From Candidatus Kerfeldbacteria bacterium (GTDB lineage: Bacteria > Patescibacteriota > Patescibacteriia > UBA10025 > JAHIVO01): DNA of 64,000 nt. The notes beneath the pieces were generated by a model, which ran no database searches, was not told the origin of the DNA, and saw only the letters and a list, made by a program, of their open reading frames with translations. Made by a program: the position numbers and the translations under genes. The stretch covers positions 649,041 to 713,040 of the forward strand of contig CP181398.1 in the NCBI GenBank assembly GCA_047946875.1. Direction: 5' to 3'. Shown piece by piece: positions 3,532 to 22,212 of the stretch. Position 1 is the stretch's first letter, and each line of letters starts with the position of its first letter.

Positions 3532-3559
3532 CTCGAAATTCCCGGCTAAAAACAAACCA

Positions 3560-3679: not shown

Positions 3680-4771
3680 TCATTTATCATACCTCCCTAT
3701 CTCCTCCTTTATTGTCCTAGCAACTACTTCCGGATCCTGCTTTTCATCGAAAAATATATTATGATAATGCGTATTATCTATCCCCAGCACCCTCAACACT
3801 TCCCATACTTTATTCTGTTGATCTTTGAATGCCTCAGGCAATACTACCAAATGAGTAATATCTAGATTCTCTTTCTTAATATAAGATGACGCATCAAGTG
3901 CCTCACATAACCACCGTCCATTAGTCGTACGCAGAGGTATCTCACCATAGGCAGGGTTCTCAGCATCGGGGTTAGTAAAATATATAGCCTCCCCTTTCCG
4001 CCTGATATTCCCATTAGCCTCCAACTGTTTAACTAGTTCCTCTGCCTCAATTATCTTCTCACTTTCTGAGATCAATAAATATTCCTTACCCTCGGTGGCA
4101 TCTTCTGACATTACCCCTTTTTCTTTTAACAAACCTTCTACACTTCTTTTAAAATTTTCTTTTACCCCATCTGACAGTTGCAACTGCGGAGCATCAAGTG
4201 GATCTCCTTTTTCAGTAGTTATTGCATGACCCTGTTCATCTGTCTGTATTTTTTTTGGCTTACCTAACAGATCCGTAGCATCAGGCATATCCGTATTATA
4301 TTCATCATAAAGAGATATCAACCTAGCCTTGGGGAATGATTCCGTTAATGTCTTCGCCACCTCTATCCCCACCTTATCCGTATCAGTCAGCTTATCCGAC
4401 CATATCTTACCACTAGATAGATCATAATCCGCCAAGTAAGGGCTAAATGACTCAAACTCCACCTTACGACCACTTCGATAATCTTCCAGGATTTCATTCA
4501 TTTGGCATAAGGAAAAATCCACGCCTTCACGCATGGCTTCTTTTGATGCTTCCTCTATTTCTTCATCCAATTTATATTTCAATTGCTTATCTCCAGCAGC
4601 TATACTAAAAGCACTTTTGAATTTATCTCTAATACCATTCAATATCTTTCTGATTTGCGAAGGACTTTTCTCCTCTTCTGTTTCAACTTCTGGAGAATCA
4701 TAAACCACCTCGGTCCTTTCAACCTCGTCGTTCCGCTCCACCTCTGGATTGTGCTTTAATGTTTCTGACAT
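3680..4771 (-). CDS. acidic hypothetical protein; probable third gene of the ATPase/DUF4276 operon
   Basis: 363 aa, Glu/Asp-rich N-terminus, no recognisable domain; starts 27 nt downstream of the DUF4276 stop on the same strand. Confidence 0.5.
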   Translation of the reverse strand: MSETLKHNPEVERNDEVERTEVVYDSPEVETEEEKSPSQIRKILNGIRDKFKSAFSIAAGDKQLKYKLDEEIEEASKEAMREGVDFSLCQMNEILEDYRSGRKVEFESFSPYLADYDLSSGKIWSDKLTDTDKVGIEVAKTLTESFPKARLISLYDEYNTDMPDATDLLGKPKKIQTDEQGHAITTEKGDPLDAPQLQLSDGVKENFKRSVEGLLKEKGVMSEDATEGKEYLLISESEKIIEAEELVKQLEANGNIRRKGEAIYFTNPDAENPAYGEIPLRTTNGRWLCEALDASSYIKKENLDITHLVVLPEAFKDQQNKVWEVLRVLGIDNTHYHNIFFDEKQDPEVVARTIKEEIGRYDK

Positions 4772-4797
4772 TTAATATTATAGTTATATTTCAATAT

Positions 4798-5490
4798 TTA
4801 TCTACTGACAAAAGAATCAACCTCTGTAATAAATTCATTTAAGCTATTAATCTTAGATTTAACAGATAAATACAATTCGCTATAATCTAATGCTTTGATA
4901 GTTCTTTTTATGCTATTTTCAGTCTTTGTATATCTTAATCCCACAATTTTATATATATCGTCTAAATCTATTGATGGATGACTTCTACTCTCTGGATTAT
5001 CTCTAAAAGGATCAAAATCAACACCAGTGCTTACAAGTGATTCTGTAAGAGAAGGATGAATTTTTCTATAATGACTTACCTCACCTAAAAACCATGCTTC
5101 CACTTCCATAATCGCTAGTACAATCTTTATTGGGATATATTTAGTTGGAACACGGGTAGATAGACCCATTTTTAAAGCTGGAATTTCAGCATGCGTAAAT
5201 GGATATACATCTCTTAACCCTATGATCCTATCGTAACCGCTTTCTGATAACTTTTCACAATGCTCAATAATGTCCGATTTAACACTTGAGTCTCCGCCAC
5301 AATCACGTATTAAAACATAATATTCCTTTTTAGGATTAATTGATTTTGCTTCAATTATTGTTAATAAATTTTTTTCAAATCTTTTTGTTTTAGATACTGT
5401 AATATTATTTTGACCAATAACTTCAATTAATAGCCTTTCTGAAAAAATTTGTTCTGTTTTACCCTCGACAAATATTGCTAACTTTTTCAT
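4798..5490 (-). CDS. DUF4276 family protein (Toprim-like)
   Basis: 230 aa; N-terminal KLAIFVEGKTEQIF plus IRDCGGD look like a Toprim Glu and DxD motif; 4-nt overlap with the upstream ATPase gene. Confidence 0.65.
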   Translation of the reverse strand: MKKLAIFVEGKTEQIFSERLLIEVIGQNNITVSKTKRFEKNLLTIIEAKSINPKKEYYVLIRDCGGDSSVKSDIIEHCEKLSESGYDRIIGLRDVYPFTHAEIPALKMGLSTRVPTKYIPIKIVLAIMEVEAWFLGEVSHYRKIHPSLTESLVSTGVDFDPFRDNPESRSHPSIDLDDIYKIVGLRYTKTENSIKRTIKALDYSELYLSVKSKINSLNEFITEVDSFVSR

Positions 5491-6629
5491 TTAATATTTT
5501 CATCTCTTAAATAAAAATTATTTGTAAAGAAATCAAAATTATTAAGTCCAGTATATTTAAATTCATCAAATAGCTTCTTAGAATTTTCATAATTAAGGAT
5601 ACTACATTTTCCTCCTACTCTATTAATAATAAGCCATAACTCAATTGGGATATCATTCATGACAAAGCGATCATTCGTAGTCATTATTAATTGAGCGGGT
5701 GAATCATCAATTTTTTTCATTAACAATTTAATAAGTGCTTGAGATCTCTCAAAATCTAATCCTTCACCAATATCATCAATGAGTATACAGGTAGGTGTTG
5801 ACTCTAAATGTGAGTAATTCAATTGAATAACCAATGACAAAGCTCTAAACATACCTTGAGAGATATCTTGTTGGTTTGTTATTCCTTCAAGATCTTTTTC
5901 CTTAACTGATAAACCCTTTGCCTCTATCTTCATCCCAAAATCAGATATAATTGGTATAGTTTCTAAAAAAATATTTTCTAATTGATAATTAATTTTCTTC
6001 ATATCCTTTCTGATTACATTTACAAATTTCTGACCATATTTTTTTTGACCTGCATCAAAAATATCAATTAGTCTGTTTATATTTTTTAAATTAATTTTTT
6101 CAATATTTTTATTTTGATTAATTCCTGAAACCTGATCTTTCCCCATTTGACTTCCAAATGGATAATAAAGAGTTTGCTTTCCCCATTTATATAGGTCATT
6201 AAAAAATGGGTGCTGAATTAAATCTTTCCTTACTACACAGGCTAATTCATTATTCGATACTTGAAAATCAATACTTTTTTTAAGTTGTACTGCAAATATT
6301 TTTCCTTTACCATTACCCTTTCTTTCTAGAAATTTCTTTTTATCTACTATGAATTCTTCTTTTAGTACTTTAGAATTTTTATATTTCAAAATATATTTAA
6401 CAATTTGTTTTCCATTCTCAAATTCAATTTCATAATTTCCTGAATTATATATTAATTTTTGATCACCAGAAACTAATGCAGCGAATGCATTTATAATATT
6501 TAATATTCTTGTTTTACCTGACGCATTTTTTCCAACAAGTAAATTTTTCTTACCAACGTTAAACTTTTTAACATGCCATGCTTTGGGCGTATTTTCAAAT
6601 TGACTATACTTGATTGATTTTAATATCAT
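5487..6629 (-). CDS. AAA_21/AAA_15-type ABC-like ATPase (OLD/PARIS AriA-like)
   Basis: 380 aa; Walker A GKNASGKT; C-terminal ILIDDIGEGLD Walker B/D-loop and TTND H-loop. Confidence 0.7.
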   Translation of the reverse strand: MILKSIKYSQFENTPKAWHVKKFNVGKKNLLVGKNASGKTRILNIINAFAALVSGDQKLIYNSGNYEIEFENGKQIVKYILKYKNSKVLKEEFIVDKKKFLERKGNGKGKIFAVQLKKSIDFQVSNNELACVVRKDLIQHPFFNDLYKWGKQTLYYPFGSQMGKDQVSGINQNKNIEKINLKNINRLIDIFDAGQKKYGQKFVNVIRKDMKKINYQLENIFLETIPIISDFGMKIEAKGLSVKEKDLEGITNQQDISQGMFRALSLVIQLNYSHLESTPTCILIDDIGEGLDFERSQALIKLLMKKIDDSPAQLIMTTNDRFVMNDIPIELWLIINRVGGKCSILNYENSKKLFDEFKYTGLNNFDFFTNNFYLRDENIK

Positions 6630-6674
6630 ATATTTATTTATTTACTAATCTAAATCTAATCCATTTTTAACTTT

Positions 6675-6700
6675 AAATCAACCCTGCCATTTACCCTCAC
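6675..6700. repeat. partial copy (A1) of the ~75-bp island repeat
   Basis: AAATCAACCCTGCCATTTACCCTCAC matches 25 of 26 nt with the start of repeats A2 and A3; lies about 45 nt upstream of the ATPase start. Confidence 0.7.
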
Positions 6701-6722
6701 AAATATCCCAGAATATCTTATT

Positions 6723-7829
6723 TTATTTTCCTGACTTAGTTCGATTATCCTGTTTACACAACATTTGACAATTTTTTGCTGTTGTTTTACCTCCTTCATG
6801 CCATGGATCAATGTGATCAGCTTCCATTTCAGAAATATCCCACTTCTGTTTCTTTTTGTTCTGCTTTTTGCAATCAGGACATACACCCTTTTGCCTCTCA
6901 TACGCTTCTCGCTTCATTTTATCGGTGAACGCGCGAATAGAAAGGTGCTTCTCCTGCCCTGTGAGTACATAAGGATAGATACCATATTTTTTTGTCACAT
7001 CCTCATCCTGCATCAATTTAGCAATTTCTGTTTCAAGTTTTTTTACACTTAATTTATTATCTTTGAATTGATTATATAGTTCTCCCCAATTCACGCTAAC
7101 CATTTCTTTACGATAATTTGTAAAAGTCTTTCGCACCCATTCAATCACATCTTGAAAATATCTCCACAACTCGTCAGCGTTTTTATCGTGTTGGTGTTTG
7201 GCCATGTAATCTTCTATCTTACCTTCGTTGATCCAGAAAAGTGCAGTTTCTAAATAATCTTGTCGTATTGGTGATCCACTTACCAAATGTCCTCCGTCAT
7301 TTGCTAAAAGATATGCTGCACAGTTTGATTTACTAAATTTCAATTTAGCATCACTTAACCATGGCCCCGTATAAACCGCATTGCGTAACTCTTGGTCGGT
7401 CAATTTTTCACCTGCAATATTAATAATCTTGAACCAATCAAGTCGCTCCCGATCTGTACCTTCGCACCAGTAAATCATAAGTTCATAATTCAAAATCTGA
7501 TCTTGTTCCTCATCTGTTAAATTATGAAAATACTTTTCATCTAGTGAAAAATCACCATTTACATATTGACCGATACTAATAGTACGCTGTTGACCATCGA
7601 GCATTTCGAAACCATCCTCATTCTTCAACCAATACATCACATTAAGTGGAAATTTTTGTTTGATGGATATTATAACTTCTTTACGTTGTTTGTCATTATA
7701 GACAAATTCGCGTTGATACTTAGGGCGAATATCGAGCTTGCCACCATATGCCACAACACCTTCTTCGGCGCTGTCTTTATAATCAGCGATTACTTCACGC
7801 ACAGAGATTCGATGTAGTTCAATTTTCAT
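6723..7829 (-). CDS. DUF262 (ParB-like DGQQR nuclease) with C-terminal HNH endonuclease domain
   Basis: 368 aa; DGQQR motif at about residue 80; C-terminus ADHIDPWHEGGKTTAKNCQMLCKQDNRTKS is an HNH motif with CxxC. Confidence 0.75.
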   Translation of the reverse strand: MKIELHRISVREVIADYKDSAEEGVVAYGGKLDIRPKYQREFVYNDKQRKEVIISIKQKFPLNVMYWLKNEDGFEMLDGQQRTISIGQYVNGDFSLDEKYFHNLTDEEQDQILNYELMIYWCEGTDRERLDWFKIINIAGEKLTDQELRNAVYTGPWLSDAKLKFSKSNCAAYLLANDGGHLVSGSPIRQDYLETALFWINEGKIEDYMAKHQHDKNADELWRYFQDVIEWVRKTFTNYRKEMVSVNWGELYNQFKDNKLSVKKLETEIAKLMQDEDVTKKYGIYPYVLTGQEKHLSIRAFTDKMKREAYERQKGVCPDCKKQNKKKQKWDISEMEADHIDPWHEGGKTTAKNCQMLCKQDNRTKSGK

Positions 7830-7830
7830 A

Positions 7831-8874
7831 CTATTTTTTTACTTTCTTATTTTTTATAATAATTCGTGCATAAGTAACATTAACAATACCATTTACAATC
7901 ATATATAAATCACCATCAACAGCACCTCTTTTTTGAATTTCCTTCCTATATTTTTTATGCTCTTCTTTGTATCGTTTAACTCCAATTTCTATTCCTGAAT
8001 TAGATATACCTAAACCAATAATCTCGAATTGTTTCGGATTATATTTATCGAGAAAAGTGATTGGCACACCCATATCACCGCCATAGTCATAAGGGATATC
8101 AGTGTATTTATTTACATTAATTGCGTTATAGTTTTCATATTTAGGATATTCCTCAGATTTATATTTTTTATAAAGTGTAATATTCTCTTTATGTTTATCA
8201 ACTTCTAAGTTAGTGAACCAACATGAAGTTGATACACGAGCAATTTTATTACCACTCTCATCAATATGATGAAACTTTTCCCAATCTTCTGGTACAATAA
8301 AAAACATACCAACATTAAAATTAGTGTAGCCAGTTCGAATTCTATCCTCCTTAAATAGTTTGAAAATTTCCTTATAAGTCATTGAATTAGTATTGCCAAT
8401 AATCAAAAACTTTTTATCATATTCTCTCAGCTGTGCAACATACTCGCGAAACAAAGAAAAGGGCGGATTAGTTACGACAATATCAGCCTCTTTGAGTAGA
8501 TCTATACACTCATCGCTACGAAAATCACCAGTGCCAATCATCTCGGTTATGAATTCTTCTGGATCAGGAATACGGTTGCCATTTTTATCACCAGTATATT
8601 CCAATTTATAAGGTTGTTCTTGGGTAAATAAGCTTGCTTCTTTGTAATGTGTAGCAATCAATTTTTTCAATCCTAAATGTTCAAAATTCATGCTGAAATA
8701 CTTGACGAAATTACTTTCTTTCGGATCATCGCAGTTACAAAAAACTACTTTGCCACGAAATTGATCTTTATAATGTTTTAGCTCTTTTTCAATATCAGAG
8801 AGTTGAGTGTAAAATTCGTCTTTCTTTTCTTTGCTTGCTTTGTGCAAATTTTTATTTGAAGATTTTTTTTTCAT
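7831..8874 (-). CDS. EcoRI-family N6-adenine DNA methyltransferase
   Basis: 347 aa; N-terminal KNLHKASKEKKDEFYTQLSDIEKEL...VVFCNCDDP and DIVVTNPPFSLFREY closely parallel M.EcoRI as I recall it. Confidence 0.75.
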   Translation of the reverse strand: MKKKSSNKNLHKASKEKKDEFYTQLSDIEKELKHYKDQFRGKVVFCNCDDPKESNFVKYFSMNFEHLGLKKLIATHYKEASLFTQEQPYKLEYTGDKNGNRIPDPEEFITEMIGTGDFRSDECIDLLKEADIVVTNPPFSLFREYVAQLREYDKKFLIIGNTNSMTYKEIFKLFKEDRIRTGYTNFNVGMFFIVPEDWEKFHHIDESGNKIARVSTSCWFTNLEVDKHKENITLYKKYKSEEYPKYENYNAINVNKYTDIPYDYGGDMGVPITFLDKYNPKQFEIIGLGISNSGIEIGVKRYKEEHKKYRKEIQKRGAVDGDLYMIVNGIVNVTYARIIIKNKKVKK

Positions 8875-8900
8875 AAATTAATATTCCAACTTTTTTATTT

Positions 8901-8980
8901 AAAATCAACCCTGCCATTTATCCTCACCCCCCACACACCAATTTCACCTATAAACTATGGGGTAACCTTGTTTTTAATCC
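8901..8980. repeat. island repeat copy A2 (~80 bp)
   Basis: Near-identical to A3 (9186-9260) over about 70 bp; sits about 20 nt upstream of the methyltransferase start. Confidence 0.8.
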
Positions 8981-9064
8981 ATAATACACTTTTGAAAATA
9001 ACTTTAAGTTTTTCTCTCTTTTTCGAGCATCTTTTTCGGAAGAATAAGCTTCATAATAATATAT

Positions 9065-9169
9065 TTATGGTGAAAATAAAATTACAGCCATAACCACTAC
9101 AAAAATAATTACAAATAATACTATTCTTTTACCTGTACCACCAATCCAAAATTTATTATATTTTTCCAT
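9065..9169 (-). CDS. 34-aa single-TM peptide (MEKYNKFWIGGTGKRIVLFVIIFVVVMAVILFSP)
   Basis: Hand-translated; a repeat copy (A3) lies immediately upstream, as for the neighbouring genes; below the ORF-track length cutoff. Confidence 0.3.
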   Translation of the reverse strand: MEKYNKFWIGGTGKRIVLFVIIFVVVMAVILFSP

Positions 9170-9185
9170 ATTAGATAAATTTTAA

Positions 9186-9260
9186 TTACCCCTGCCATTT
9201 ATCCTCACCCCCACATACCAATTTCACCTATAAACTATAAGGTAACCTTGTTTTTAAACA
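9186..9260. repeat. island repeat copy A3 (~75 bp)
   Basis: CCCCTGCCATTTATCCTCACCCCCACA(C/T)ACCAATTTCACCTATAAACTAT..GGTAACCTTGTTTTTAA shared with A2; overlaps the 3' end of the RhuM ORF. Confidence 0.8.
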
Positions 9261-9680
9261 CCAATTCTCTAAACACCTTTTTAAATGAAAACTTTTATTA
9301 ATAATGTAGCCATCAATCATATGCTGTTTTAATACCTTTGTCGCCCAAATACGAAATTGCGTAGCGTGTTTAGAATTAACGCGATAACCTACAGAAATAA
9401 TTGCATCAAGATTATATAAATTAACATCACGCTCTATATATCGTTTTCCTTCTTTTTGAACTATCCGGAAATTCCGGATAGTTGCTTTATCTGTTAATTC
9501 ACCTGTTCTATAAATATTTTTTAAATGCTCATTAATCGTACGTACATCTACATCGAAAACTTCAGCGATCTGCTTTTGAGATGCCCAAATAGTCTCTAGA
9601 TTAAAATCTCCACGAAATTCAATTGCTCCAGTTTTAGCCTGGTAAATAACAATATTTTTAATAGATTTATTTTTATTCAT
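9228..9680 (-). pseudogene. 3'-truncated RhuM-family (virulence/Fic-associated) gene
   Basis: 150 aa versus about 330 aa for the family; homology (IVIYQ..G.IEF...ETIWASQKQIAEVF...QFRIWATKVLKQHMIDGY) ends where repeat A3 begins; the last ~24 residues are read from sequence in and next to the repeat. Confidence 0.6.
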
Positions 9681-9744
9681 ATTATGTTAAAATGGTCTTT
9701 TAATTTTTAGTTCTTCATAATAACTAACCAAATTGATGTTAGGG

Positions 9745-12700
9745 CTAACCTTCCCACTTGTCTTCGCAGATTTCTTTAAAATCACAGGTCTTACACCAGA
9801 AGCCTGGATTTGCCTTAAAATCACTCTTCCTTATTTCCAAGATCTTATCTACTAATTTATCTTTCAATTTATCAAGTTCAGAATCCTTAGCAGTAAATGA
9901 GATCGGTTGATTTGCATTAACATAAAGATAAGTTAACTTAGCTGGTTTTAGTTTAAGAATATCCTTAGCAGCTAATGCATAGATCATCAACTGTTCTTTC
10001 TCATCCACTGACAACTTACCATTTTTTGGAACTTTACCAGTTTTGTAATCTATAATTTCTACTCCAGCGGAGCTGGACCCCGGTTTGCGGGGATCATTTC
10101 CATTAACATCACCAATTGGGTCTACTCTATCTATGACCCCTTTGAATGTATGTTCACCTAGTTTCAAATGAAATGGTTGTTCTAAGAATAATGGTACTGG
10201 AAAATCACCAGCTAATGAATCGTAATACATCTTCAATGACTCTCGACCCTGTTCATAATATTCTTCTTTATGCTGAACTGACAAATACCAATCCTCTATC
10301 CACTCTTGCTCATACAGTCCCATTAGTTCATCAAAACCAATTTTGACTTGGCCTTTGGCTGATCGATCTTGTACCATTTTGAAAAACTTAAATAAGGTAT
10401 TGTGAATTGTCTTACCATAACTAAACATATGCTTACCTTCTACTGGTATACGTAATAGATGTGCGTATTTGAATTGCTTAGGACAATTTTTGAAAGCCCG
10501 AAGTTGAGTATAGCTTGATTTCTCTGGAATTACTTTTCGTAAGTAATCTAACTCTTTAATTTTCTCTTGTTTAACATTATCGGTAGCTTTGAGTCTTTCT
10601 GTCTTATCTACCTCCCCTGTCCCTTTCTTCACTTCGAAACCAGTCTCGATCAAAAATCTGGATGGTTTTTTCTTGCGAGAGCCACCGTAATCATCTGCGG
10701 AAGTAAAATATAATCCCTCCTTAGCTCTGGTCATCGCTACATAGAATAATCGTCTCTCCTCCTGCAAATGAATATCCCCTTCTGGGATAATTTCTTTTAC
10801 CAATTCATCAGGTAGTTCAATCGGCTCTTTTCTTTCTATGGTTGGGAATCTTTTATCAACCAAATTTACTATAAATACATTTTTGAATTCCAATCCCTTA
10901 GCGCCATGAATAGTCATGATCTTAACTGCATCAGGCCCTTCATCCCAAGTTTGATTCATCGATCCAGATTCCCCTGCATCCTGAGATTGCTCAAATTCAT
11001 AAAGAAAATTCTTAACTGACTTATCATCATTAACTGCTTCAAAATCCTCTATCTTCCTGAAGAACTGATTAAGATGAATTATGCGTTCCATATTTTCTGG
11101 ACTATCTTTTGCAGTGATCTCTTTGAAATATCCAGAATCTTTCATAAATCTTAGAGCTACTGATAGTACATTTTTATCTCTAGTTAGCTGGGTATGCTTC
11201 TCTATCATGCCTAAGATTTTCTCAATGACATGATGTCCGCTTGATGAAATGCCAGGAATCCCTCTAACTTGTCCCATTGCTTCAAATAATGACATACGCT
11301 TCATAGCTGCATAACGTGATATAGACATCAGATAATCAGTTGGCAATTTAAACTGCTTAAAATTGAGCACTCTCCACATAGCAGCGCTCTCATGATAGTT
11401 ATCCAACATTTTCATATAGGCTACGATATCCATAATCTCTGGTTGACCATACAAACCTTTGGATGCCAAAAACTGATGCGGTATGTCTAGACGTGATAAT
11501 GAATTTATAAACTCCGCAGCGTATGAATTTGCCCTGATCAGGATAGCAAAATCACTCCATAATAATTTTCCGGCAGAGCCGGATCCCGCTTTGCGGGGCT
11601 TATTTCCAGTTTTCAGTTCTAATATTTTCTTAGTAACTCCACTTGCTTCGTCTAAATACGAATTGAAATGTAGATGCCGAATAACACCATCTTTACCAAT
11701 AGCTGATTTTAGCTTCTTACTTATTTTATTCTTTAGTGGAGCGCCCTTGGGATCTATCTTCCCTTTGGTCAGCTGATACTCAAGACGATTTGGGTCATTC
11801 TGTTTAATAAATTTATATGACAAATCTAGGATATTTTGTTTGGTACGATAATTGTCAGTTAGCACAATCTCATCAGACTCAGGAAAATCTTTTTTAAATT
11901 CCAAAATATTACTAATAGCAGCACCACGAAATTTATAGACAGATTGGTCATCATCCCCTACTACTGTAAGATTATTTTTTGGAGCAGATAATAATTTGAT
12001 TAATTCATACTGTGCGTAATTAGTATCTTGAAACTCGTCTACCAATATGTATTTGAACTGTTCTTGATATTTCTTTAATATTTTTGGACGCGTCTTGAAT
12101 AGCTTAATGGTATAAAGTATCAGATCACCGAAGTCCATGGCACTATTTTCTAACAGCAACTGCTGATAAACCTTGTAAGCATTAGCTACTTCCTGAACTC
12201 TTTTGTCTTCTGAAATTTCTTCGTCAACATCATCCTGACTACTATCTGGCTTTAGCTTATTAGCATATTCAATATATTCATCAGGTAATATGTTCTCATC
12301 TTTGGCTCGAGAAAAATGCCTAACTAAGGCTTGAACAAACTTGGTTGGATTACCTAAAGGACGATAGTAATCAAGATCAAATTTATCAAAATTCTTTTGA
12401 ATTAATAGAACTTGGTCTGTAACACTCAATAATTTAAAGTCAGGCGGTAAGCCAATCTCCAAGGCATTATCTTTCAATATTCTTTCACAAAAAGCATGAA
12501 AGGTAGATACCCAAAGATCAACATATCCCATTGGTAATAATACATCTATCCTCTCTTCCATCTCAGCCGCTGCTTTCTCTGTAAAAGTCAGAGCTAATAG
12601 ATGGTCAGTGTTTATCTTCTTCTCTAATATTAACCAAGCTATTCTCTCTGTAATCACGGTTGTTTTGCCAGTACCCGCTCCTGCTACAATTAGCAAAGGA

Positions 12701-12759
12701 CCCTCACCAAATGTGACGGCTTTTTTCTGGGCAGGATTAAGATTATCAGTAATGTTCAT
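9745..12759 (-). CDS. UvrD/PcrA-type SF1 helicase fused to a C-terminal PD-(D/E)XK (Cas4/AddB-like) nuclease
   Basis: 1004 aa; Walker A GAGTGKTT, helicase motifs, C-terminal EIIDYKTGK and a Cys cluster (C..C......C). Confidence 0.8.
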   Translation of the reverse strand: MNITDNLNPAQKKAVTFGEGPLLIVAGAGTGKTTVITERIAWLILEKKINTDHLLALTFTEKAAAEMEERIDVLLPMGYVDLWVSTFHAFCERILKDNALEIGLPPDFKLLSVTDQVLLIQKNFDKFDLDYYRPLGNPTKFVQALVRHFSRAKDENILPDEYIEYANKLKPDSSQDDVDEEISEDKRVQEVANAYKVYQQLLLENSAMDFGDLILYTIKLFKTRPKILKKYQEQFKYILVDEFQDTNYAQYELIKLLSAPKNNLTVVGDDDQSVYKFRGAAISNILEFKKDFPESDEIVLTDNYRTKQNILDLSYKFIKQNDPNRLEYQLTKGKIDPKGAPLKNKISKKLKSAIGKDGVIRHLHFNSYLDEASGVTKKILELKTGNKPRKAGSGSAGKLLWSDFAILIRANSYAAEFINSLSRLDIPHQFLASKGLYGQPEIMDIVAYMKMLDNYHESAAMWRVLNFKQFKLPTDYLMSISRYAAMKRMSLFEAMGQVRGIPGISSSGHHVIEKILGMIEKHTQLTRDKNVLSVALRFMKDSGYFKEITAKDSPENMERIIHLNQFFRKIEDFEAVNDDKSVKNFLYEFEQSQDAGESGSMNQTWDEGPDAVKIMTIHGAKGLEFKNVFIVNLVDKRFPTIERKEPIELPDELVKEIIPEGDIHLQEERRLFYVAMTRAKEGLYFTSADDYGGSRKKKPSRFLIETGFEVKKGTGEVDKTERLKATDNVKQEKIKELDYLRKVIPEKSSYTQLRAFKNCPKQFKYAHLLRIPVEGKHMFSYGKTIHNTLFKFFKMVQDRSAKGQVKIGFDELMGLYEQEWIEDWYLSVQHKEEYYEQGRESLKMYYDSLAGDFPVPLFLEQPFHLKLGEHTFKGVIDRVDPIGDVNGNDPRKPGSSSAGVEIIDYKTGKVPKNGKLSVDEKEQLMIYALAAKDILKLKPAKLTYLYVNANQPISFTAKDSELDKLKDKLVDKILEIRKSDFKANPGFWCKTCDFKEICEDKWEG
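10064..10104. repeat. GC-rich palindromic in-frame mini-insert, copy 2
   Basis: CCAGC-GGA-GCTGG followed by CCCCG-GTTTG-CGGGG; encodes NGNDPRKPGSSSAG on the gene strand. Confidence 0.6.
11570..11609. repeat. GC-rich palindromic in-frame mini-insert, copy 1
   Basis: CCGGC-AGA-GCCGG followed by CCCGC-TTT-GCGGG; encodes TGNKPRKAGSGSAG; about 80% nt identity to the copy at 10064. Confidence 0.6.
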
Positions 12760-12786
12760 AACATTATTTTATCAAAAAAACCAACG

Positions 12787-12833
12787 TTTGTCATACATCA
12801 TACCTTGACAAAAAGTATGAAACAGTATACGAT
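12787..12833 (+). promoter_or_regulatory. promoter with an operator-like inverted repeat TTTGTCA-N12-TGACAAA over the -35
   Basis: 26-nt block identical to 13090-13115; TTGACA at 12805, TACGAT at 12828. Confidence 0.5.
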
Positions 12834-12871
12834 CAATTGAAAACATTTTTAATACTGTGGAGGCTGGCATA

Positions 12872-13060
12872 ATGATGATTGATCGGAAACGCTGGAAACA
12901 ACTAATAACCCTAAAAGAAGCAGGGTTGCCTCGACCCACATTTCAAATGTCAGAAAAAGACATTCTATCAGGTGATGATCGCTGGAAAAAATTTTGGGAC
13001 TACTGCATAACCAGCGGTGGACCAATAACCCTACCATTACCGGAGCCTATCAATTTTTGA
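12872..13060 (+). CDS. hypothetical small protein (~62 aa)
   Basis: ATG 8 nt after a GGAGG ribosome-binding site; GC-rich. Confidence 0.35.
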   Translation: MMIDRKRWKQLITLKEAGLPRPTFQMSEKDILSGDDRWKKFWDYCITSGGPITLPLPEPINF

Positions 13061-13089
13061 TAGGTTTTTTTTAATCAAATAATATGTTA

Positions 13090-13136
13090 TTTGTCATACA
13101 TCATACCTTGACAAATAAGTAATCCCGTGATATTAT
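13090..13136 (+). promoter_or_regulatory. second copy of the promoter/operator: TTGACA-N17-TATTAT with the same inverted repeat
   Basis: Perfect hexamers; about 70 nt upstream of the 13207 gene. Confidence 0.6.
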
Positions 13137-13206
13137 AATTAGTTCATTCAAACTGACGGTGATAATAAAGTCACTGCGGTAAACATCGAATGGACAAGGA
13201 GTTAAC

Positions 13207-13677
13207 ATGTATATTTACATTAAGCCGGAAGCGGTCGAAGAACTGAAAAAGTACTTAGAAGGTCTTGATCAGGTCAAGATTGCCATTGAGTATGGCACGG
13301 AATCGGGTAGGAATTTGATAAGTACCCATCAAAATCCGTTCGGTATTACTTTTTCCATGGTAGATATTCCCGAAGAATTCATCGAAGAGATCACTATCCA
13401 GGACCACCAAATTGATAATGAAAATTGCACCCGGATAGAAGGGATCTACCGACATGAAGGTGCGGTATTGCAGTGCCATTTGCAAATCATATTAACTAAC
13501 AATGGTATGAATGAATGTGCTAGAGATATTATGGTAATCTCTATCACCGCTCCCAACTTGAAATCTCTTCAGACGATTTACACCCAGTTCCGATTGGGAA
13601 AAATTGAACCCGAAGAAAACTGGGAAGTTGACCAAGTAGGTCAAGAAAGTCCTTCTGATGAGGACAAAACAGAATAG
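13207..13677 (+). CDS. hypothetical protein
   Basis: 156 aa, GC-rich, acidic C-terminus. Confidence 0.5.
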   Translation: MYIYIKPEAVEELKKYLEGLDQVKIAIEYGTESGRNLISTHQNPFGITFSMVDIPEEFIEEITIQDHQIDNENCTRIEGIYRHEGAVLQCHLQIILTNNGMNECARDIMVISITAPNLKSLQTIYTQFRLGKIEPEENWEVDQVGQESPSDEDKTE

Positions 13678-13700
13678 CGAATAATCGCACAAAATAGAAT

Positions 13701-13739
13701 AACCCCGTTTGTATTTATACACTCGGGGTTAATTTTTTA
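13701..13739 (+). terminator. rho-independent terminator
   Basis: AACCCCG...CGGGGTT stem followed by T6. Confidence 0.65.
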
Positions 13740-13744
13740 TTCCA

Positions 13745-14477
13745 AAAAATTGAATAAAAAAAAGACCGTCCCCACCATGTTGCATCAGTATGCTACTAGC
13801 GGGAACGGTTAATCTAATATTCTATAATAATTTTTTGATCTAAACGAATCCAGTGGGAAACGGCATTTGAATGCCTCCGAGGTTTACCCTTTTTTGCTGG
13901 GCCGGCTGTATCTAATGTGTCCCCTACGTATACATTAACGCGGGGTGTGGAAAACAGGACTACGGATCACTAGGTGAATCCGTAAGTGGCCATATACGAC
14001 TTGCGTGTCATAGTAGCTTCCCTTTCGGGGGTCTAACGTATGGGTTTGTGGGCCATGCCGCTCTTTTTTTGGCGGCTGTGTTTCTGTCTTCTTTTTTCCG
14101 GCTGAGGCCAGATAGAGTCTGGCGGCCAGGTGCCGGATTTTTGTTTCAGTCTTCTTTTTGTCGACGAATTGTCGTCGCGCAATGGCCAGCGGCGCTAGCT
14201 TTTTCTTTTTTTTTGAACTACTGCTAGGGTCGCAGGACTACTCGGCGGCGACATACGACGGCCGGGTCGGTGAAAGTTTAATTAAAATGCGCTTTGCGCA
14301 GGTGGTTGCCGAAATTCGGCGATCCTCGGTTGAACATTTTTTTTACTCCTTTCTACCCTGGATGGTCATGTGTTAGGTTAATTCTTTCAATGAACGCGTA
14401 CTACACATATACATGCTCTACCGGTGCCAATTTAGGCGTATTACTCACGGTTATGGCATGTTATTGCGTAACCAATA
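13745..14477 (-). ncRNA. candidate large structured ncRNA (~700 nt), class unknown
   Basis: About 50% GC in a ~30% GC genome; no ORF longer than 74 aa; many GC stems; minus-strand promoter TTGACA-N17-TAGTAT at 14478-14506; minus-strand terminator (9-bp stem plus T10) at 13753-13809. Confidence 0.3.
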
Positions 14478-14527
14478 ATACTAGCGCATATTGCATAACT
14501 TGTCAAGGGGTAATATAAAGATATAAA

Positions 14528-14553
14528 AAAAGCATCTTTTATTCAAAGATGCT
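14528..14553. terminator. bidirectional hairpin terminator
   Basis: AGCATCTTT-TATTC-AAAGATGCT flanked by A-runs and T-runs. Confidence 0.5.
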
Positions 14554-14903
14554 TATCGTTTTAACAGTCGCTCTAGCTCAACAGACAAAGAATCATCGTA
14601 CTTGCTCACTTTTTCACAAGTAAAATTTTGTCCATTAATCCAACACTTCCAAACTATATTGTTTTCCCAAAATTTACGGTTCTGCTTCCAAATTAAGAAA
14701 AAAGATTTGGCTGTCGGACCCGATTTACAAAGAATACTAATCTTGCCTTTAGCAGTATTACCTGAGCTTTGAATAACTCTTCCATAGAAAGGCTCTCTAT
14801 GTCCATCTATGTAAATCTCTACTACATCCCACATTTTTGGGATATAATCCGGTCCATTTTCATGGAAAGTACGCATAATATCCTCCAATGTATAAAAGAT
14901 CAT
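14553..14903 (-). CDS. hypothetical protein
   Basis: 116-aa ORF. Confidence 0.45.
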   Translation of the reverse strand: MIFYTLEDIMRTFHENGPDYIPKMWDVVEIYIDGHREPFYGRVIQSSGNTAKGKISILCKSGPTAKSFFLIWKQNRKFWENNIVWKCWINGQNFTCEKVSKYDDSLSVELERLLKR

Positions 14904-14999
14904 TTTCGATTATAGCTTACATTCTTAAGTAAATATCGTCAATTACAGTTTTTGTAACAAAAAAGACCCTTTAATCTAGAGGGTCTTCAATTCATTAAT

Positions 15000-15329
15000 T
15001 TACATTTCTCCGCCTTCACCTTCAATAGCAGAGCGGAGTGACTCTACCATATCATCGACTCTAGACCTCTTGTCACCAGACATCGCTATATAGTTCTCCT
15101 GATCCATTGCCAAACTCAACCACTCACTTTCATCACTATCTTCTTTAATACCAATCTGCTGGTAAATAGCAATTAATTCCGTTGGATTTTTACCATTTAA
15201 ATTTTCCTTTAGAAATTGAGCCGTGGCAGTAGCTTTTTCCCACATGGCCCTGCCCTCAGGTGATTTCCCAGCTTCACTCATATATTTAAATATTAGTTTA
15301 TTATAATTTAATTTTAAACCATATATCAC
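15000..15329 (-). CDS. hypothetical protein
   Basis: 109-aa ORF; the true start may be an internal Met. Confidence 0.45.
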   Translation of the reverse strand: MIYGLKLNYNKLIFKYMSEAGKSPEGRAMWEKATATAQFLKENLNGKNPTELIAIYQQIGIKEDSDESEWLSLAMDQENYIAMSGDKRSRVDDMVESLRSAIEGEGGEM

Positions 15330-15360
15330 TTAATATCAAATCGCCCTTTTACGCTAGGGG

Positions 15361-15389
15361 TTGACAAATAACAATAAAGGTGATACTAT
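15361..15389 (+). promoter_or_regulatory. promoter TTGACA-N17-TACTAT
   Basis: Hexamers upstream of the 15446 operon. Confidence 0.55.
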
Positions 15390-15445
15390 GTTTAGTTAAC
15401 TATTTTTGAAAGAAACTTGAAATAATAATACAAACGGAGGTAACA

Positions 15446-15955
15446 ATGAAGTTACATCACACCATTTTGACCATAATTTTGGTCATCAGTTTAGCAACCT
15501 TCTTTGGTTGCAATGGGGAATCATCAAACATGTCAACTGAAGCTCAGTTGGAAGAAACTATTAGAAACCTTCCTACCGGGTATAACGACATGATGGTTCT
15601 TTATTCGGAAATTCTCAACCTAGAAGATGGTTTTATAAAACTATTGGACAGTTACGATGAATTCCGAGTAACTATGGACTCCATTCGTGCATGTACACCG
15701 GAAGAAGAGCTACTACCGGATTCGATCTATGTGCAGAATGGCAGGTTCAACGACGACATTTTCAGTGTGGAGAACCTTTGGAATAAGAAGGTATACCAGT
15801 ACAACGAAATGGGTGGAGTAATGCATCCTGACAGTTTGATGGCAGGCAATACCGCCATGAACATCGAACTACCGGCTGGTATCAACATCCAAGCCGAAGA
15901 GTCAAAGACTGATGAAGAAAAAGTTCAAAAAATCTTAGAATCATTGAATCAGTAA
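15446..15955 (+). CDS. putative lipoprotein
   Basis: 169 aa; signal peptide with lipobox FFGC. Confidence 0.55.
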   Translation: MKLHHTILTIILVISLATFFGCNGESSNMSTEAQLEETIRNLPTGYNDMMVLYSEILNLEDGFIKLLDSYDEFRVTMDSIRACTPEEELLPDSIYVQNGRFNDDIFSVENLWNKKVYQYNEMGGVMHPDSLMAGNTAMNIELPAGINIQAEESKTDEEKVQKILESLNQ

Positions 15956-15974
15956 CAAGAAGGGAGTTCAAAAA

Positions 15975-16451
15975 ATGAGACATGAAAAGTATTTCATCGA
16001 AAGTACTGGCGAAGTTAAACTCGCTAAAATCATTTTCCATGTATTCGGCCTTATTTGCCTGATCGTCTTGCTTAGTTTCGTGGGCAAAGTGGTCTTCTTT
16101 CCAGCGCAAGTAGCGCAGGAAATCGCTGAAGAGACTTTCGACGGTAGTCGGATGATCTATGTCTACGAAGACTTCTTCAACAAGTACGAAGCGGCCAAAG
16201 CAACAGCCATCAAGGTGAAAAATCACCAGAGGGCTCTGGATGACTTCAAATTCGGCCATCCGGACCCGGATAATTGGGATTATAATGATCGTCAAGAGTA
16301 TGATCGTTTATCCTCAATGATTCCAGCCGTGATGAATTTATTGGCCGACCAAGTCGGACAGTATAACGCCGACGCCGCGAAGATCAACCGCGCTTTTCTG
16401 AAAGGCGATAAATTGCCTGACAGTCTGGTCATTGAAGAACTCACGCAATAA
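15975..16451 (+). CDS. membrane-anchored hypothetical protein
   Basis: 158 aa with an N-terminal TM helix. Confidence 0.5.
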   Translation: MRHEKYFIESTGEVKLAKIIFHVFGLICLIVLLSFVGKVVFFPAQVAQEIAEETFDGSRMIYVYEDFFNKYEAAKATAIKVKNHQRALDDFKFGHPDPDNWDYNDRQEYDRLSSMIPAVMNLLADQVGQYNADAAKINRAFLKGDKLPDSLVIEELTQ

Positions 16452-16469
16452 CCCAAGGAAGGAAGAAAG

Positions 16470-17048
16470 ATGAAAACGAGAAAAATTCTCATTCTAACTT
16501 GTATGGCTTTGTTCGTCCTGATGGCGAATGGAGTCGTCCTGGCGGATAACGATTTTGAAGCGTCCTCCAAAGCTGTCAGTAGAATTCAGGCTCAGGACCA
16601 ATTGCAAACCGCTCAGAATTTCGAACGGTTATACAATGCGGTCCCGCCACCCGAAATGCAGGACTCCCAGGAACGACGCCAGCTGGTCAAACGGCTGAAT
16701 CGTTTCAATGTTTCTTCAAAGATCAGTTATATTTATCTGATCGACCGGGGAATCATCATGGCCTTCTTTACGGTCAAGGGAAAAGTCAGCTCAGTTAACT
16801 CCATGCTGACCTGCACAAAACAATTGGTTTACGATGGTTACGGTACCAGCTATGGCCGAGGTGGCGTTCACGCGGTTGCTAGTCCTGATCTCGACGGTAG
16901 CTATGGTACCAATGGTAATGGAGTATTCTTCTTCACCGATCTCGATACTTATATCGAATGGAACGGCAAGTACCTACTCTGTGATCAGTACATAAAGCTC
17001 AACCAACCGCCGGTCCTCGTTCTCGAAACTGAGGAAGGAGGCAAATAA
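16470..17048 (+). CDS. secreted hypothetical protein, tandem paralog A
   Basis: 192 aa, signal peptide; about 70% identical to the next gene. Confidence 0.6.
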   Translation: MKTRKILILTCMALFVLMANGVVLADNDFEASSKAVSRIQAQDQLQTAQNFERLYNAVPPPEMQDSQERRQLVKRLNRFNVSSKISYIYLIDRGIIMAFFTVKGKVSSVNSMLTCTKQLVYDGYGTSYGRGGVHAVASPDLDGSYGTNGNGVFFFTDLDTYIEWNGKYLLCDQYIKLNQPPVLVLETEEGGK

Positions 17049-17049
17049 G

Positions 17050-17631
17050 ATGAGATTGAACAAAAATCATATCATCTTCATCGCCATCGCTATGGCTATA
17101 CTCCTTCTGACTATCGGTTGTGGAAAGAATAAAGAATTTTCCAACTCATCCAAAGCCGTCAGTAACATTCAGGCCAAGGACCAGCTGAAAACCGCTGAAA
17201 ATTTCGAACGGTTATACAAAGCGGTCCCACCTCCGGAACTTCAGGATTCCCAAGAACGGCGTCAGCTGGTTAAACGGCTGAACCGATTCAATGTAGCCAA
17301 CAAGATCAGCTTTATCTACATCATTGACTTCGGGAAAATCATTGGATTTTTCACGGTCAAAGGTAAAGTCAGTTCAGTTAACTCTATGTTAACTTGTACT
17401 GAACAGCTGGTTGATGATGGATTTGGGACGGGTACTGGTGAAAATGGACGCGATAATGTCCATATTGTTCCCAGTCCTGATCTTGACGGTAGCTATGGTA
17501 CCAATGGTAAAGGAGTATTCTTCTTTACTGATCTCGATATCTATGTGGAATGGAATGGCACTTATATGCTTTCCGACCAGTACATCAAACTGGATCAACC
17601 ACCGGTCCTTATGCTCAAAGTGAAAGCCTAG
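17050..17631 (+). CDS. lipoprotein, tandem paralog B
   Basis: 193 aa; lipobox TIGC; shares the conserved KGKVSSVNSMLTCT motif with paralog A. Confidence 0.6.
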   Translation: MRLNKNHIIFIAIAMAILLLTIGCGKNKEFSNSSKAVSNIQAKDQLKTAENFERLYKAVPPPELQDSQERRQLVKRLNRFNVANKISFIYIIDFGKIIGFFTVKGKVSSVNSMLTCTEQLVDDGFGTGTGENGRDNVHIVPSPDLDGSYGTNGKGVFFFTDLDIYVEWNGTYMLSDQYIKLDQPPVLMLKVKA

Positions 17632-17670
17632 AGCAAAAGAGGCTAGTTAACATAACGTTCTTTATTATAA

Positions 17671-17705
17671 AGGTCTGTGCGATACGCTCCACAGACCTTT
17701 TTTAT
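17671..17705 (+). terminator. rho-independent terminator
   Basis: AGGTCTGTG...CACAGACCT followed by T7. Confidence 0.65.
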
Positions 17706-17761
17706 TTGTAAAATTTAAAAAGACTAAGCAATAAAGTTTAGTCTTATATTTTTTTTACCCT

Positions 17762-18215: not shown

Positions 18216-18656
18216 TTAAATTGTTGGATTAATATCTTTTCGATGTCTTCTTCTCTTTACTACTTTTATTCTAATTAATTCTTTCTCAATCTTAGCAGAT
18301 AATGCGGCGAATTCTTTGGCGTCTGTTCTCTTCTCAGTCAATAACTTCTCAGCCTTCTGTCTAGCTTCTTCTGCCTTTGCTTCATCAATATCGTCTGACT
18401 TCTCAGCTGAATCAGCCAAAACTACCACCTTGTCAGGTCGCACTTCTATGAATCCTCCGGACACAGCCAGATACTCCTCTTCTTTACCTTTCTTAATCTT
18501 TAATTCTCCTGGTTTCAGAATAGAAACCAATGGAATATGATTTGGCAATATACCAATTTCACCCTGCACAGTCGGCAAAACAACCTCATCTACCTGATCA
18601 GAATATACTACTTTTTCAGGAGTTATTATTTCAAAATTAAGTTTTTTTTCTGCCAT
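18216..18656 (-). CDS. atpC: F0F1 ATP synthase epsilon subunit
   Basis: 146 aa; beta-sandwich plus helical hairpin; operon position. Confidence 0.85.
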   Translation of the reverse strand: MAEKKLNFEIITPEKVVYSDQVDEVVLPTVQGEIGILPNHIPLVSILKPGELKIKKGKEEEYLAVSGGFIEVRPDKVVVLADSAEKSDDIDEAKAEEARQKAEKLLTEKRTDAKEFAALSAKIEKELIRIKVVKRRRHRKDINPTI

Positions 18657-18666
18657 ACAAAAATTA

Positions 18667-20064
<1,398 letters not shown>

Positions 20065-20173
20065 TTATTATTAATTTATTTATTGTTTAAAACTCTTGAC
20101 AAATTTATGTATTTATAATTAGATATAGTAATTGTTCAAATTGTACATTGATAAAATAAACTAGGAGGAATTC

Positions 20174-20653
20174 ATGAATACGGATGTTTTACAACCATTA
20201 CCAGATGAGTATAAAGATAAAACTAGTAGCGAAATAGCGGTTTTATTGTTTGACTCATCAAAAATTAATAATACTGAGTTAGCAAATATACTTGGTATCG
20301 GCAGGACAACTCTGTGGCGATATCGGAAGAAAAAATTCTCAAAACTGATTATGGCTAATGCTATCATTCAAGCTTTGGGTTATATTCCACCTAATCTACC
20401 TCAACGGAAAATGCCTGCTACGACTTCAGATGATCAACAGCTCTACTCTGGTACAATAGTATATAGCTATTTAAATGGTACTGTAACCTACATCAAATGG
20501 TTAGAGAAAAAATCAGAGACGCTCTGTAAGGTAAAATTAGACAAATATGATAGAGAAATAGTAATAATATTTCCTTATGATATTACTGATCGTGTCTTCC
20601 GTGAGTCTAAAATAATACTAGTCAATGAAATGGTTGGTAAAATCAAACTCTAA
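20174..20653 (+). CDS. HTH-domain protein (paralog 1)
   Basis: 159 aa; LANILGIGRTTLWRY helix-turn-helix. Confidence 0.5.
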   Translation: MNTDVLQPLPDEYKDKTSSEIAVLLFDSSKINNTELANILGIGRTTLWRYRKKKFSKLIMANAIIQALGYIPPNLPQRKMPATTSDDQQLYSGTIVYSYLNGTVTYIKWLEKKSETLCKVKLDKYDREIVIIFPYDITDRVFRESKIILVNEMVGKIKL

Positions 20654-20672
20654 AATAACGGAGGTAAGAGTG

Positions 20673-21164
20673 ATGAACGATCAAGGATTGAACAATTCAT
20701 TTCCTATTATCGATCTAAATCAAGACGATGCAACATTACTTGAAACAATTTATCAAGCATTCTTATTAACTGGTGAAAACGACGTTGTTCTATCACGTAG
20801 ACTAGGAATTTCTCGTAACACCCTCCGATCTATAAAAAATGGTAACCACGGAATTCTGTCAAAATCTCTATCTATCTTGCGTAGTCTTGGATATTGCCTC
20901 ATCCTCCCGATAACTGATTCAGCATTCGAATTTCGACAGTTACCTATTGTGGTAACCTCGGCTATTGAAAATCCCGATCCGGATTGTTTTGAAGAGGTTA
21001 CTAGATGTAAGCAATATCTGGTAGATGATGGATGGGAAATTGTTCTGATTAATCGCCGTCCAATAGATGATGACAGGTATCAGTTCACTTTACATGCTCG
21101 CCGGTTGGTCCCTGAAGATTTTAAAGAAAAATCATCAAATACCCAATCTGTGGCTGCAGTATGA
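20673..21164 (+). CDS. HTH-domain protein (paralog 2)
   Basis: Start moved to the ATG 8 nt after GGAGG; LSRRLGISRNTLRSI helix-turn-helix; shares the (A/S)LGY motif with paralog 1. Confidence 0.5.
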   Translation: MNDQGLNNSFPIIDLNQDDATLLETIYQAFLLTGENDVVLSRRLGISRNTLRSIKNGNHGILSKSLSILRSLGYCLILPITDSAFEFRQLPIVVTSAIENPDPDCFEEVTRCKQYLVDDGWEIVLINRRPIDDDRYQFTLHARRLVPEDFKEKSSNTQSVAAV

Positions 21165-21291
21165 CTCCTTTGTTTATTATAAAGCGCTTTTAAGATTATT
21201 ATCTTAGGCGCTTTTTTTATTTAATGTACTTTCCAATTACTGGATAAAATCTATATTCAATAATTAAATACAAATTTCAGCCAATAACTTA

Positions 21292-22212
21292 TTATTTGAC
21301 TGCTGCAGCCCCGGCACTAATTTCTGCTATCTCTGATGTAATTGCCTGTTGTCTAGCTTGGTTGAATGTTAGATTCAAATCATCAATCATATCTCCAGCT
21401 GCATCAGATGCATTACGCATGGCTACCATTCGTGAAGAATGTTCAGATGCATTTGATTCTAACAATGCTTGATATACTTGCAACTCAATCAAACGATGCA
21501 ACATCTGATCCAAAACTACATCAGGAGATGGTTCGAATGTATATTCCAAATCTGTAGTTTCAGCTTCTACATTATCCTTCTTATCTTTTATAACATGACC
21601 CAACTCATTATCTTCTTTTGAAATAGGTAATAATTTTCTAATATAAGCTTCTTGAGATACGGCAGATTTATAATCAGTATAAGCAATTACTACTCTTTCA
21701 TATTTTCCAGATAAATAATCTGTGATAACCATCTTTGCTATAGCGCTTATTTCCGTAACACTTTCTGCAGTTTCTGGTTTAGGAAAGTTAGCAATAATCT
21801 TATGATTATATTGATGCATAATATCTTTACCACGATCACCCATCAAAAATATGTCCGCTATCTCTTCAATATTTTTTTCTTTTTTCTTTTTATCTAAATA
21901 CCCTGCAACTTTTTCAACAATCTCACGATTAAATCCGCCACATAAACCACGGTTTGAATTAATCATTATTATGCCTATTTTTCCGTCTTTTGATTCTTTT
22001 CTTTCTAATAAAGGATGGTGAGAAGCATCTGTCTTGGCAGATAGATTCTTAACAATATCCCAAGCCGTATTTGCATAATGACGGGTTTCCAAAACAGACT
22101 TCACTGCTTTTCTCATTTTTGAAGCAGCAACCAACTCCATAGCTTTAGTAATTTTTTTAGTACTACTTATGGAGCGAAGACGTCTTTTTATTTCTTTAGT
22201 TGCTAGGGGCAT
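21292..22212 (-). CDS. atpG: F0F1 ATP synthase gamma subunit
   Basis: 306 aa; N-terminal KEIKRRLRSISSTKKITKAMELVAASKMRKA. Confidence 0.9.
   Translation of the reverse strand: MPLATKEIKRRLRSISSTKKITKAMELVAASKMRKAVKSVLETRHYANTAWDIVKNLSAKTDASHHPLLERKESKDGKIGIIMINSNRGLCGGFNREIVEKVAGYLDKKKKEKNIEEIADIFLMGDRGKDIMHQYNHKIIANFPKPETAESVTEISAIAKMVITDYLSGKYERVVIAYTDYKSAVSQEAYIRKLLPISKEDNELGHVIKDKKDNVEAETTDLEYTFEPSPDVVLDQMLHRLIELQVYQALLESNASEHSSRMVAMRNASDAAGDMIDDLNLTFNQARQQAITSEIAEISAGAAAVK

Follow-up and report, generated by a model that had tools for sequence, protein, structure and literature searches.

A repeated 26-nt promoter block around an orphan gene in a Candidatus Kerfeldbacteria genome, and its probable origin in a bidirectional promoter

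Introduction

Back-to-back divergent sigma-70-type promoters place their -35 hexamers on opposite strands, each with a -10 element at a distance of 17 nt, and serve genes that point away from each other. Dyad symmetry in such a region follows from the consensus that the two -35 elements have in common. The locus described here, where the predicted transcription starts lie ~81 bp apart, has all of these features. It departs from the known arrangement in that a leaderless mRNA from an extended -10 promoter is predicted for the helicase gene on one side, and in that the promoter core is duplicated, with three genes on two copies.

To count as putative mobile promoters, sequences upstream of non-paralogous genes must be 80% or more identical across 50 nt or more (PMC3575422). 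Our locus likewise carries identical promoter sequence in front of unrelated coding sequences in one genome. However, the identity spans 26 nt only, the flanks have no significant similarity, and the two copies are not dispersed but lie 303 bp apart, probably as the two ends of one insertion. Phage morons, which are promoter-gene-terminator insertions, offer another parallel because the 62-aa unit considered below is small, compositionally distinct, self-contained, and located between two older genes. Unlike a moron, this unit is found outside a prophage and would borrow its -35 element from the target site.

Repressor operators that cover a -35 element, such as phage sites of the Cro/CI type, the C-boxes of restriction-modification controllers, and LexA boxes, also form a dyad over the -35 element of a strong promoter. 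The presence of a DNA-repair-type helicase gene and small genes next to the block is reminiscent of these systems. In contrast to them, no cognate DNA-binding protein was found for this locus, the dyad neither recurs in the sequences scanned nor is conserved, and selection on half-sites does not explain its 19-bp centre-to-centre spacing and identical spacer.

The 26-nt block and its surroundings

The source organism is a member of Candidatus Kerfeldbacteria (CPR/Patescibacteria) with a genome of 1,309,938 bp, and the same sequence is present with 100% identity in two NCBI assemblies and one JGI metagenome. The window, by which we mean the whole 64,000-nt stretch of DNA analysed, is chromosomal and includes the ATP synthase operon at 18216-26062. 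The closest relative found is a single organism represented by three loci (L084, L085, and L086). The features on which the argument depends are as follows.

9745 to 12759, minus strand: core gene for a 1004-aa UvrD-like helicase with a C-terminal PD-(D/E)XK nuclease domain (Pfam hits; 71 related loci; 73% identical to the L084 protein)
12766 to 12794, minus strand: predicted divergent helicase promoter, with -35 element ATGACA at 12794-12789, a 17-nt spacer, and TG-n-TAAAAT (-10 element at 12771-12766)
12787 to 12812, no strand assigned: copy 1 of the 26-nt block; its left 10 nt are the putative -35 region of the helicase promoter (minus strand) and its right 8 nt the putative -35 element of the 62-aa unit
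12805 to 12833, plus strand: predicted promoter of the 62-aa unit (TTGACA, 17 nt, TACGAT)
12813 to 13089, no strand assigned: lineage-specific 277-nt insert with its own -10 element, Shine-Dalgarno (SD) sequence, 62-aa ORF, and terminator; not present between the helicase gene and the 156-aa homologue in L084, L085, and L086
12872 to 13060, plus strand: orphan 62-aa ORF (ACNFW9_03385), itself the sole match among 5.8 billion proteins
13042 to 13072, plus strand: intrinsic terminator of the 62-aa unit, a 12-pair stem followed by T8
13090 to 13115, no strand assigned: copy 2 of the block; its right 8 nt are the putative native -35 element of the 156-aa gene promoter and its left 18 nt probably duplicated passenger sequence from the helicase side
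13108 to 13136, plus strand: predicted promoter of the 156-aa gene (TTGACA, 17 nt, TG-n-TATTAT; 11/12 consensus positions), conserved in homologous loci
13142 to 13194, plus strand: conserved two-helix structure in the 5' UTR of the 156-aa gene, ending just before the SD sequence AAGGAG at 13196-13201
13207 to 13677, plus strand: 156-aa gene (ACNFW9_03390) of a small uncharacterised family with 57 representative homologues (full-sensitivity HMMER)

The initial annotation reported an identical 26-nt block at 12787 and 13090, and this repeat is indeed exact. The 26-mer TTTGTCATACATCATACCTTGACAAA occurs just twice on the plus strand, at 12787-12812 and 13090-13115, and no further match with three or fewer mismatches exists (0 expected in shuffles). 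Both copies contain perfect 7-nt inverted arms separated by a 12-nt spacer, and at copy 2 the arms extend to 8 nt. As had also been described, TTGACA is located inside the right arm and is followed after 17 nt by TACGAT at copy 1 or by TG-n-TATTAT at copy 2. The block also holds an internal 7-nt tandem repeat (TTTG-TCATACA-TCATACC-TTGACAAA). Searches for the exact 26-mer in viral_contigs and genome_contigs gave 0 matches, as did a 20-base semi-degenerate version in metagenome_contigs. This organism is evidently missing from the latter collection, since the search did not recover JGI contig L005, which is identical to the window sequence.

Beyond its edges, the repeat ends abruptly. Local alignment of the two left flanks gave a score of 13 compared to 9.7 for shuffled sequences, with 32 of 500 shuffles reaching 13, and the similarity score of the right flanks was below the shuffle mean. 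Thus, the repeat is a sharply bounded island of identity between flanks that have no significant similarity, and this same observation rules out a tandem duplication of the two units followed by divergence. A short additional homology, AAGTA, lies immediately to the right of both copies.

The proposal that a duplicated promoter module drives two genes agrees with the presence of two self-contained units. The first consists of a promoter, an SD sequence (GGAGG at 12860-12864, 7 nt before the ATG), the 62-aa ORF, and a terminator. The second comprises a promoter, a structured leader, an SD sequence, the 156-aa ORF, and a terminator. Both genes are GC-rich, as claimed, with GC3 values of 0.37 and 0.43 compared to 0.20-0.28 in core genes.

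Two arms, two predicted promoters

The right arm, TTGACAAA, is the general -35 consensus of this organism (cTTGACAaa). The window contains 7 instances of the related sequence CTTGACAAA where 1.08 would be expected, and most of them lie in intergenic promoters with a TAnnnT hexamer 17 nt downstream. When compared to sigma-70-type promoters, the element pair at 12805/12833 agrees with 10/12 consensus positions, the pair at 13108/13136 with 11/12 plus the TG, and the minus-strand pair at 12794/12766 with 10/12 plus the TG. The spacing between -35 and -10 elements falls within 16-18 nt in all three predicted promoters. Moreover, the helicase and 156-aa gene elements are conserved in orthologous upstream regions; the 62-aa promoter has no orthologue for such a comparison. 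On these sequence criteria, promoters at both copies of the block are credible, and the transcription starts are placed by the same predictions.

The left arm reads ATGACA(AA) on the minus strand and would serve the divergent helicase promoter as its -35 element. The -10 element stands 6 nt before the helicase ATG at 12759, and the mRNA is predicted to be leaderless and to be made from an extended -10 promoter. A -10 element followed after 6-7 nt by ATG is the layout common to the helicase orthologues in L022, L008, L013, L014, L015, L007, and L053, and also in L084. These orthologues belong to other CPR genomes, and the leaderless layout is also frequent among core genes of the window (e.g., 56207, 46352, and 35207). 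No good match to a minus-strand -10 element follows the left arm of copy 2.

More broadly, many core genes of the window (e.g., 12759, 35749, 47029, and 56207) are probably leaderless, since they lack an SD sequence and a TAnnnT hexamer precedes their start codon by 5-7 nt. The GC-rich accessory genes all carry a strong SD sequence of the GGAGG type. The analysis thereby records, for a Kerfeldbacteria genome, promoters close to the sigma-70-type consensus and leaderless genes that appear to be frequent.

How surprising is the symmetry of the block? With 32 TTGACA hexamers in the window, 0.22 instances of a 7-nt inverted repeat overlapping one of them are expected, and the probability of at least one is ~0.20, where the two copies of the block are counted as one event. 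The dyad alone is thus weak evidence. A second dyad of two opposed -35 hexamers, TGTCAAAcTTTGACA, is found at 56163-56177 in another divergent intergenic region. Its plus-strand hexamer TTGACA is followed by 17 nt, TATAAT, 6 nt, and the ATG of a T4SS-pilin-like gene at 56207.

The arms are conserved separately

The best 156-aa homologue, P0123 (41% identity), is divergently adjacent to the helicase gene in L084, L085, and L086, the sole close relative showing the insert-less state. The gene order in L084 is the helicase gene (minus strand), 362 nt, and the 156-aa homologue (plus strand), with no 62-aa gene in between. Since a relative has a homologue beside its helicase gene, the 156-aa gene was not acquired recently. 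By this comparison, the lineage-specific part of the locus is the 62-aa unit only, and not the 156-aa gene.

On the helicase side of L084, the stretch CAT..ATTTTATCAAAAAAAA..GTTTGTCATAC matches the -10 region in the window, and GTTTGTCATAC is kept at 11 of 11 positions next to the helicase -10 element. Towards the 156-aa gene, the promoter at copy 2 and L084 have in common TTGACAAA, the GTGATAT -10 region, ATTAGTTCATT, and the leader, and the TTGACAA -35 element and the leader recur in L087, L088, L089, L090, and L091. The two arms are ~230 nt apart in L084, separated by unrelated GC-rich DNA, and form no dyad there. Indeed, TTTGTCA-N12-TGACAAA is found upstream of none of the six homologous 156-aa-family genes (L084 and L087-L091). 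The two arms thus have separate evolutionary histories, the left arm being conserved with the helicase gene and the right arm with the 156-aa gene. Judged from these loci, the dyad is confined to the case in which two -35 regions chance to adjoin.

The helicase/160-aa intergenic region of L084 also holds a ~120-nt GC-rich element (3690-3810) bounded by a 13-nt inverted repeat, GTCATTCTGAGGA / TCCTCAGAATGAC. The left end of this element repeats TTTGTCAT of the helicase -35 element.

These comparisons bear directly on the function that the initial annotation had assigned to the block, namely a dimeric-repressor site overlapping a promoter. In such an operator model, a repressor bound to TTTGTCA-N12-TGACAAA would occlude the -35 element and co-regulate the 62-aa gene, the 156-aa gene, and, from copy 1, the helicase gene. 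The symmetry itself is appealing: 7-nt arms with a 12-nt spacer (8 bp in each arm at copy 2) form a perfect dyad whose right arm contains the -35 element, and copy 2 retains the whole dyad even though its left arm has no obvious promoter role there. Furthermore, the repeat boundary is also the end of the dyad. However, each arm appears to be the -35 element of a different promoter, conserved apart from the other in the closest relative, and a dyad of this kind is expected by chance at a rate that is far from negligible. A second, different back-to-back -35 dyad at 56163-56177 also counts against the operator, and the identical 12-nt spacer points to copying rather than to selection on half-sites.

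The motif search that had been proposed as a check returned no further instance of TTTGTCA-N12-TGACAAA in ~84 kb of the 1.31-Mb genome (the window plus 10 kb on either side), in 71 helicase loci of relatives, or at L084 and five other homologous promoters. A search for a partner helix-turn-helix (HTH) protein fared no better. No DNA-binding domain was detected in the neighbouring 62-, 156-, 107-, and 93-aa proteins, and the only HTH matches (genes at 20174-21164) lie 7 kb away, are weak, and fall under Pfam thresholds. We therefore regard an operator for a dimeric repressor as unlikely, and a dedicated regulator is probably absent.

A related scenario is that a dyad created by juxtaposed -35 regions has since become a working operator for a small CPR regulator, either the 62-aa orphan or the weak-HTH proteins at 20174-21164, which would couple the helicase-nuclease, the orphan, and the 156-aa gene. 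We consider this quite unlikely. The 62-aa protein was evaluated as a DNA-binding regulator and set aside: it has no Pfam or PHROG match, and its AF2 single-sequence model (pLDDT 55) is too poor to judge.

The two HTH candidates at 20174-21164 (plus strand; Xre-like HTH, E = 7.6e-4) lie within the minus-strand ATP synthase operon, with atpD on one side and atpG on the other. These two atp genes are adjacent in the relative L082.

A probable duplication of a bidirectional promoter core

The best reading of the repeat is one of ordinary promoter evolution, in which it is not evidence of a repressor site. Specifically, we assign a probability of about 0.7 to the explanation that the block represents the back-to-back -35 regions of two opposed promoters, duplicated when the orphan unit was inserted between them. 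In this view, a compact bidirectional promoter region would have the 26-nt block at its core. The left end of the block, TTTGTCATAC (minus strand, GTATGACAAA), would be the -35 region of the leaderless, extended -10 helicase promoter, and its right end, TTGACAAA, the -35 region of the promoter for the conserved 156-aa gene. The dyad symmetry would follow from two -35 elements that have one consensus and point in opposite directions.

In this Kerfeldbacteria lineage, an event of 303 bp (the 277-nt insert plus one copy of the block) would have placed the self-contained orphan unit between the two promoters and duplicated the block. The helicase gene would have kept its -35 element, the 62-aa gene would have taken the right arm of copy 1 as its own, and the 156-aa gene would have kept a full promoter by means of copy 2, where the left arm would be a passenger. 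Candidate routes to such a duplication include template switching, repair of a staggered break, or recombination at -35 microhomology. A single duplicative insertion of 303 bp is the simplest account because the left flank of copy 1 corresponds to the helicase promoter of the relative and the right flank of copy 2 to its 156-aa-family promoter, and the 277 nt between have no counterpart there. We infer both the direction of the event and its single-step nature from this alignment of flanks. Loss of the 62-aa unit in the L084 lineage is a possible alternative to insertion, since one relative alone shows the insert-less state.

Two observations run against treating the left part of copy 2 as a passenger. 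The left boundary of the duplication coincides exactly with the end of the dyad, and the extension of the dyad to 8 nt at copy 2 is not predicted by this reading.

A different role for the left part of copy 2 would be that of an UP-like or activator-binding element, in which the 18 nt before the -35 hexamer (TTTGTCATACATCATACC) boost transcription, which would explain their retention at copy 2. The two copies agree at all 18 nt despite flanks that have no significant similarity, and the 18 nt include the tandem repeat TCATACA/TCATACC. Yet homologous promoters of the 156-aa family carry unrelated sequence upstream of the -35 element, and the 18 nt are not rich in A/T tracts as UP elements are. 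Since the block measures 26 nt and one recent event would have copied it, the identity needs no selection. An upstream element is thus very improbable.

Direct repeats around a discrete insert that is missing from a relative also call to mind site-specific integration, with the block as an att-like or core site and the 277 nt as a mini-cassette whose arrival left the direct repeats. The dyad symmetry of the block would suit such a site. However, no integrase or transposase was found near the site in the window, the insert has no terminal inverted repeats, and neither a third copy of the block nor a second one of the insert turned up. The 12-nt spacer is also at odds with the core sites of tyrosine recombinases. 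We judge a recombination site to be exceedingly improbable, and the duplicated promoter core remains our preferred explanation.

The 277-nt insert has no similarity to any fetched locus, and its left end resembles the spacer of the promoter at 3093. The claim that the promoter at 3093 shares the sequence after the -35 element with the copy at 12805 stands in part: AAAGTATGAA is present at 3099 and 12812, the only pair in the window, and the left arm of the block is absent at 3093. This 10-mer was considered as proof that the insert derives from a 3093-like promoter, and that argument is weakened by the occurrence of TTGACAAAAGTAT in a promoter of an unrelated organism (L091). The gene at 3160-3531 had been called STAS-like, and it has no STAS or other Pfam match. 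A regulon of horizontally acquired genes, which had been suggested on this basis, finds no backing in a 10-nt spacer match that comes without the dyad, nor in the 156-aa gene given its age.

In assembly GCA_008633345.1, the contigs break within the T8 run at 13065-13072 (end of L004, start of L002) and overlap by 8 T. The break was considered as a sign of a population variant and dismissed because it does not fall at a block boundary.

Because the dyad has an ordinary explanation, its regulatory importance is small. The locus instead offers a clean, small example of a streamlined CPR genome gaining an orphan gene. No neighbour would lose its -35 element in the process, because a new unit placed in a bidirectional promoter duplicates the 26-nt core.

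Two RNA candidates

The analysis also yielded two RNA candidates, of which the first is the leader of the 156-aa gene family. A fold computed with RNAalifold from seven sequences has 18 pairs, and compensatory changes occur in 10 of these. In this fold, 89.7% of cells are paired compared to 19-52% when the alignment is slid, and 0 of 500 shuffles reached the observed values. The structure is also present at about 3935-3990 of L084 and upstream of the homologues in L087, L088, L089, L090, and L091. No Rfam match was obtained for this leader, and its 5' UTR core pattern gave 0 matches in metagenome_contigs. We propose it, from covariation among these homologues, as a candidate new cis-regulatory leader in CPR bacteria. 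The encoded protein has a confident AF2 model (pLDDT 93), for which Foldseek found no counterpart in either PDB or BFVD (E <= 0.001), and the residues G79, Y81, and R129 are invariant in its family.

The second is a candidate large structured RNA of 712 nt on the minus strand (13760-14471). This GC-rich region has no long ORFs and is located between a near-consensus promoter (14506-14478) and a strong terminator (~13765-13815). Its minimum free energy is -213 kcal/mol compared to -175 kcal/mol for shuffled sequences (z = -6.3), with z = -3.1 for the plus strand. An SD-led 19-codon ORF (~14288-14347) lies within the region, as do A-rich linkers that carry an 18-nt repeat. Rfam gave no match for the region, and none of the fetched loci holds a homologue. 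Across the analysis, Rfam gave nothing relevant at gathering and E-value thresholds, and no tRNA was found.

The wider neighbourhood

In more distant relatives, the genes atpD, atpC, (carbonic anhydrase), helicase, X, and pheS are all co-directional. Given this gene order, the window has extra DNA on both sides of the helicase gene (~1527-9744 and 12760-17760). The first of these regions is a defence-type block that encodes a DUF559 endonuclease, a DUF4276 protein, an AAA_21 ATPase, a GmrSD-HNH protein, an EcoRI-type methylase, and a truncated RhuM. It sits between the helicase gene and the genes that directly follow the helicase gene in relatives.

Genes in the second region have GC3 values of 0.37-0.53 compared to 0.20-0.28 in core genes, and all are SD-led where many core genes are not. 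No flanking repeats of the kind that would mark a mobile island were found around this 5-kb region. Its recent import as a whole is ruled out because the right part is common to a relative at ~70% nucleotide identity.

Within this right part, the segment at 15270-15450 (plus strand), which holds a promoter at 15361 and a 5' UTR, has ~93% mean column identity with the relative (L082 1855-2040; L083 217-402), compared to ~70% nucleotide identity in the adjoining aligned region. This suggests a constrained leader for the operon at 15446-17631. The tandem paralogues at 16470-17631 (plus strand) are 75% identical and belong to a family of 444 homologues, the named ones being from CPR bacteria. Some of these homologues are annotated as prepilin-type N-terminal cleavage/methylation proteins.
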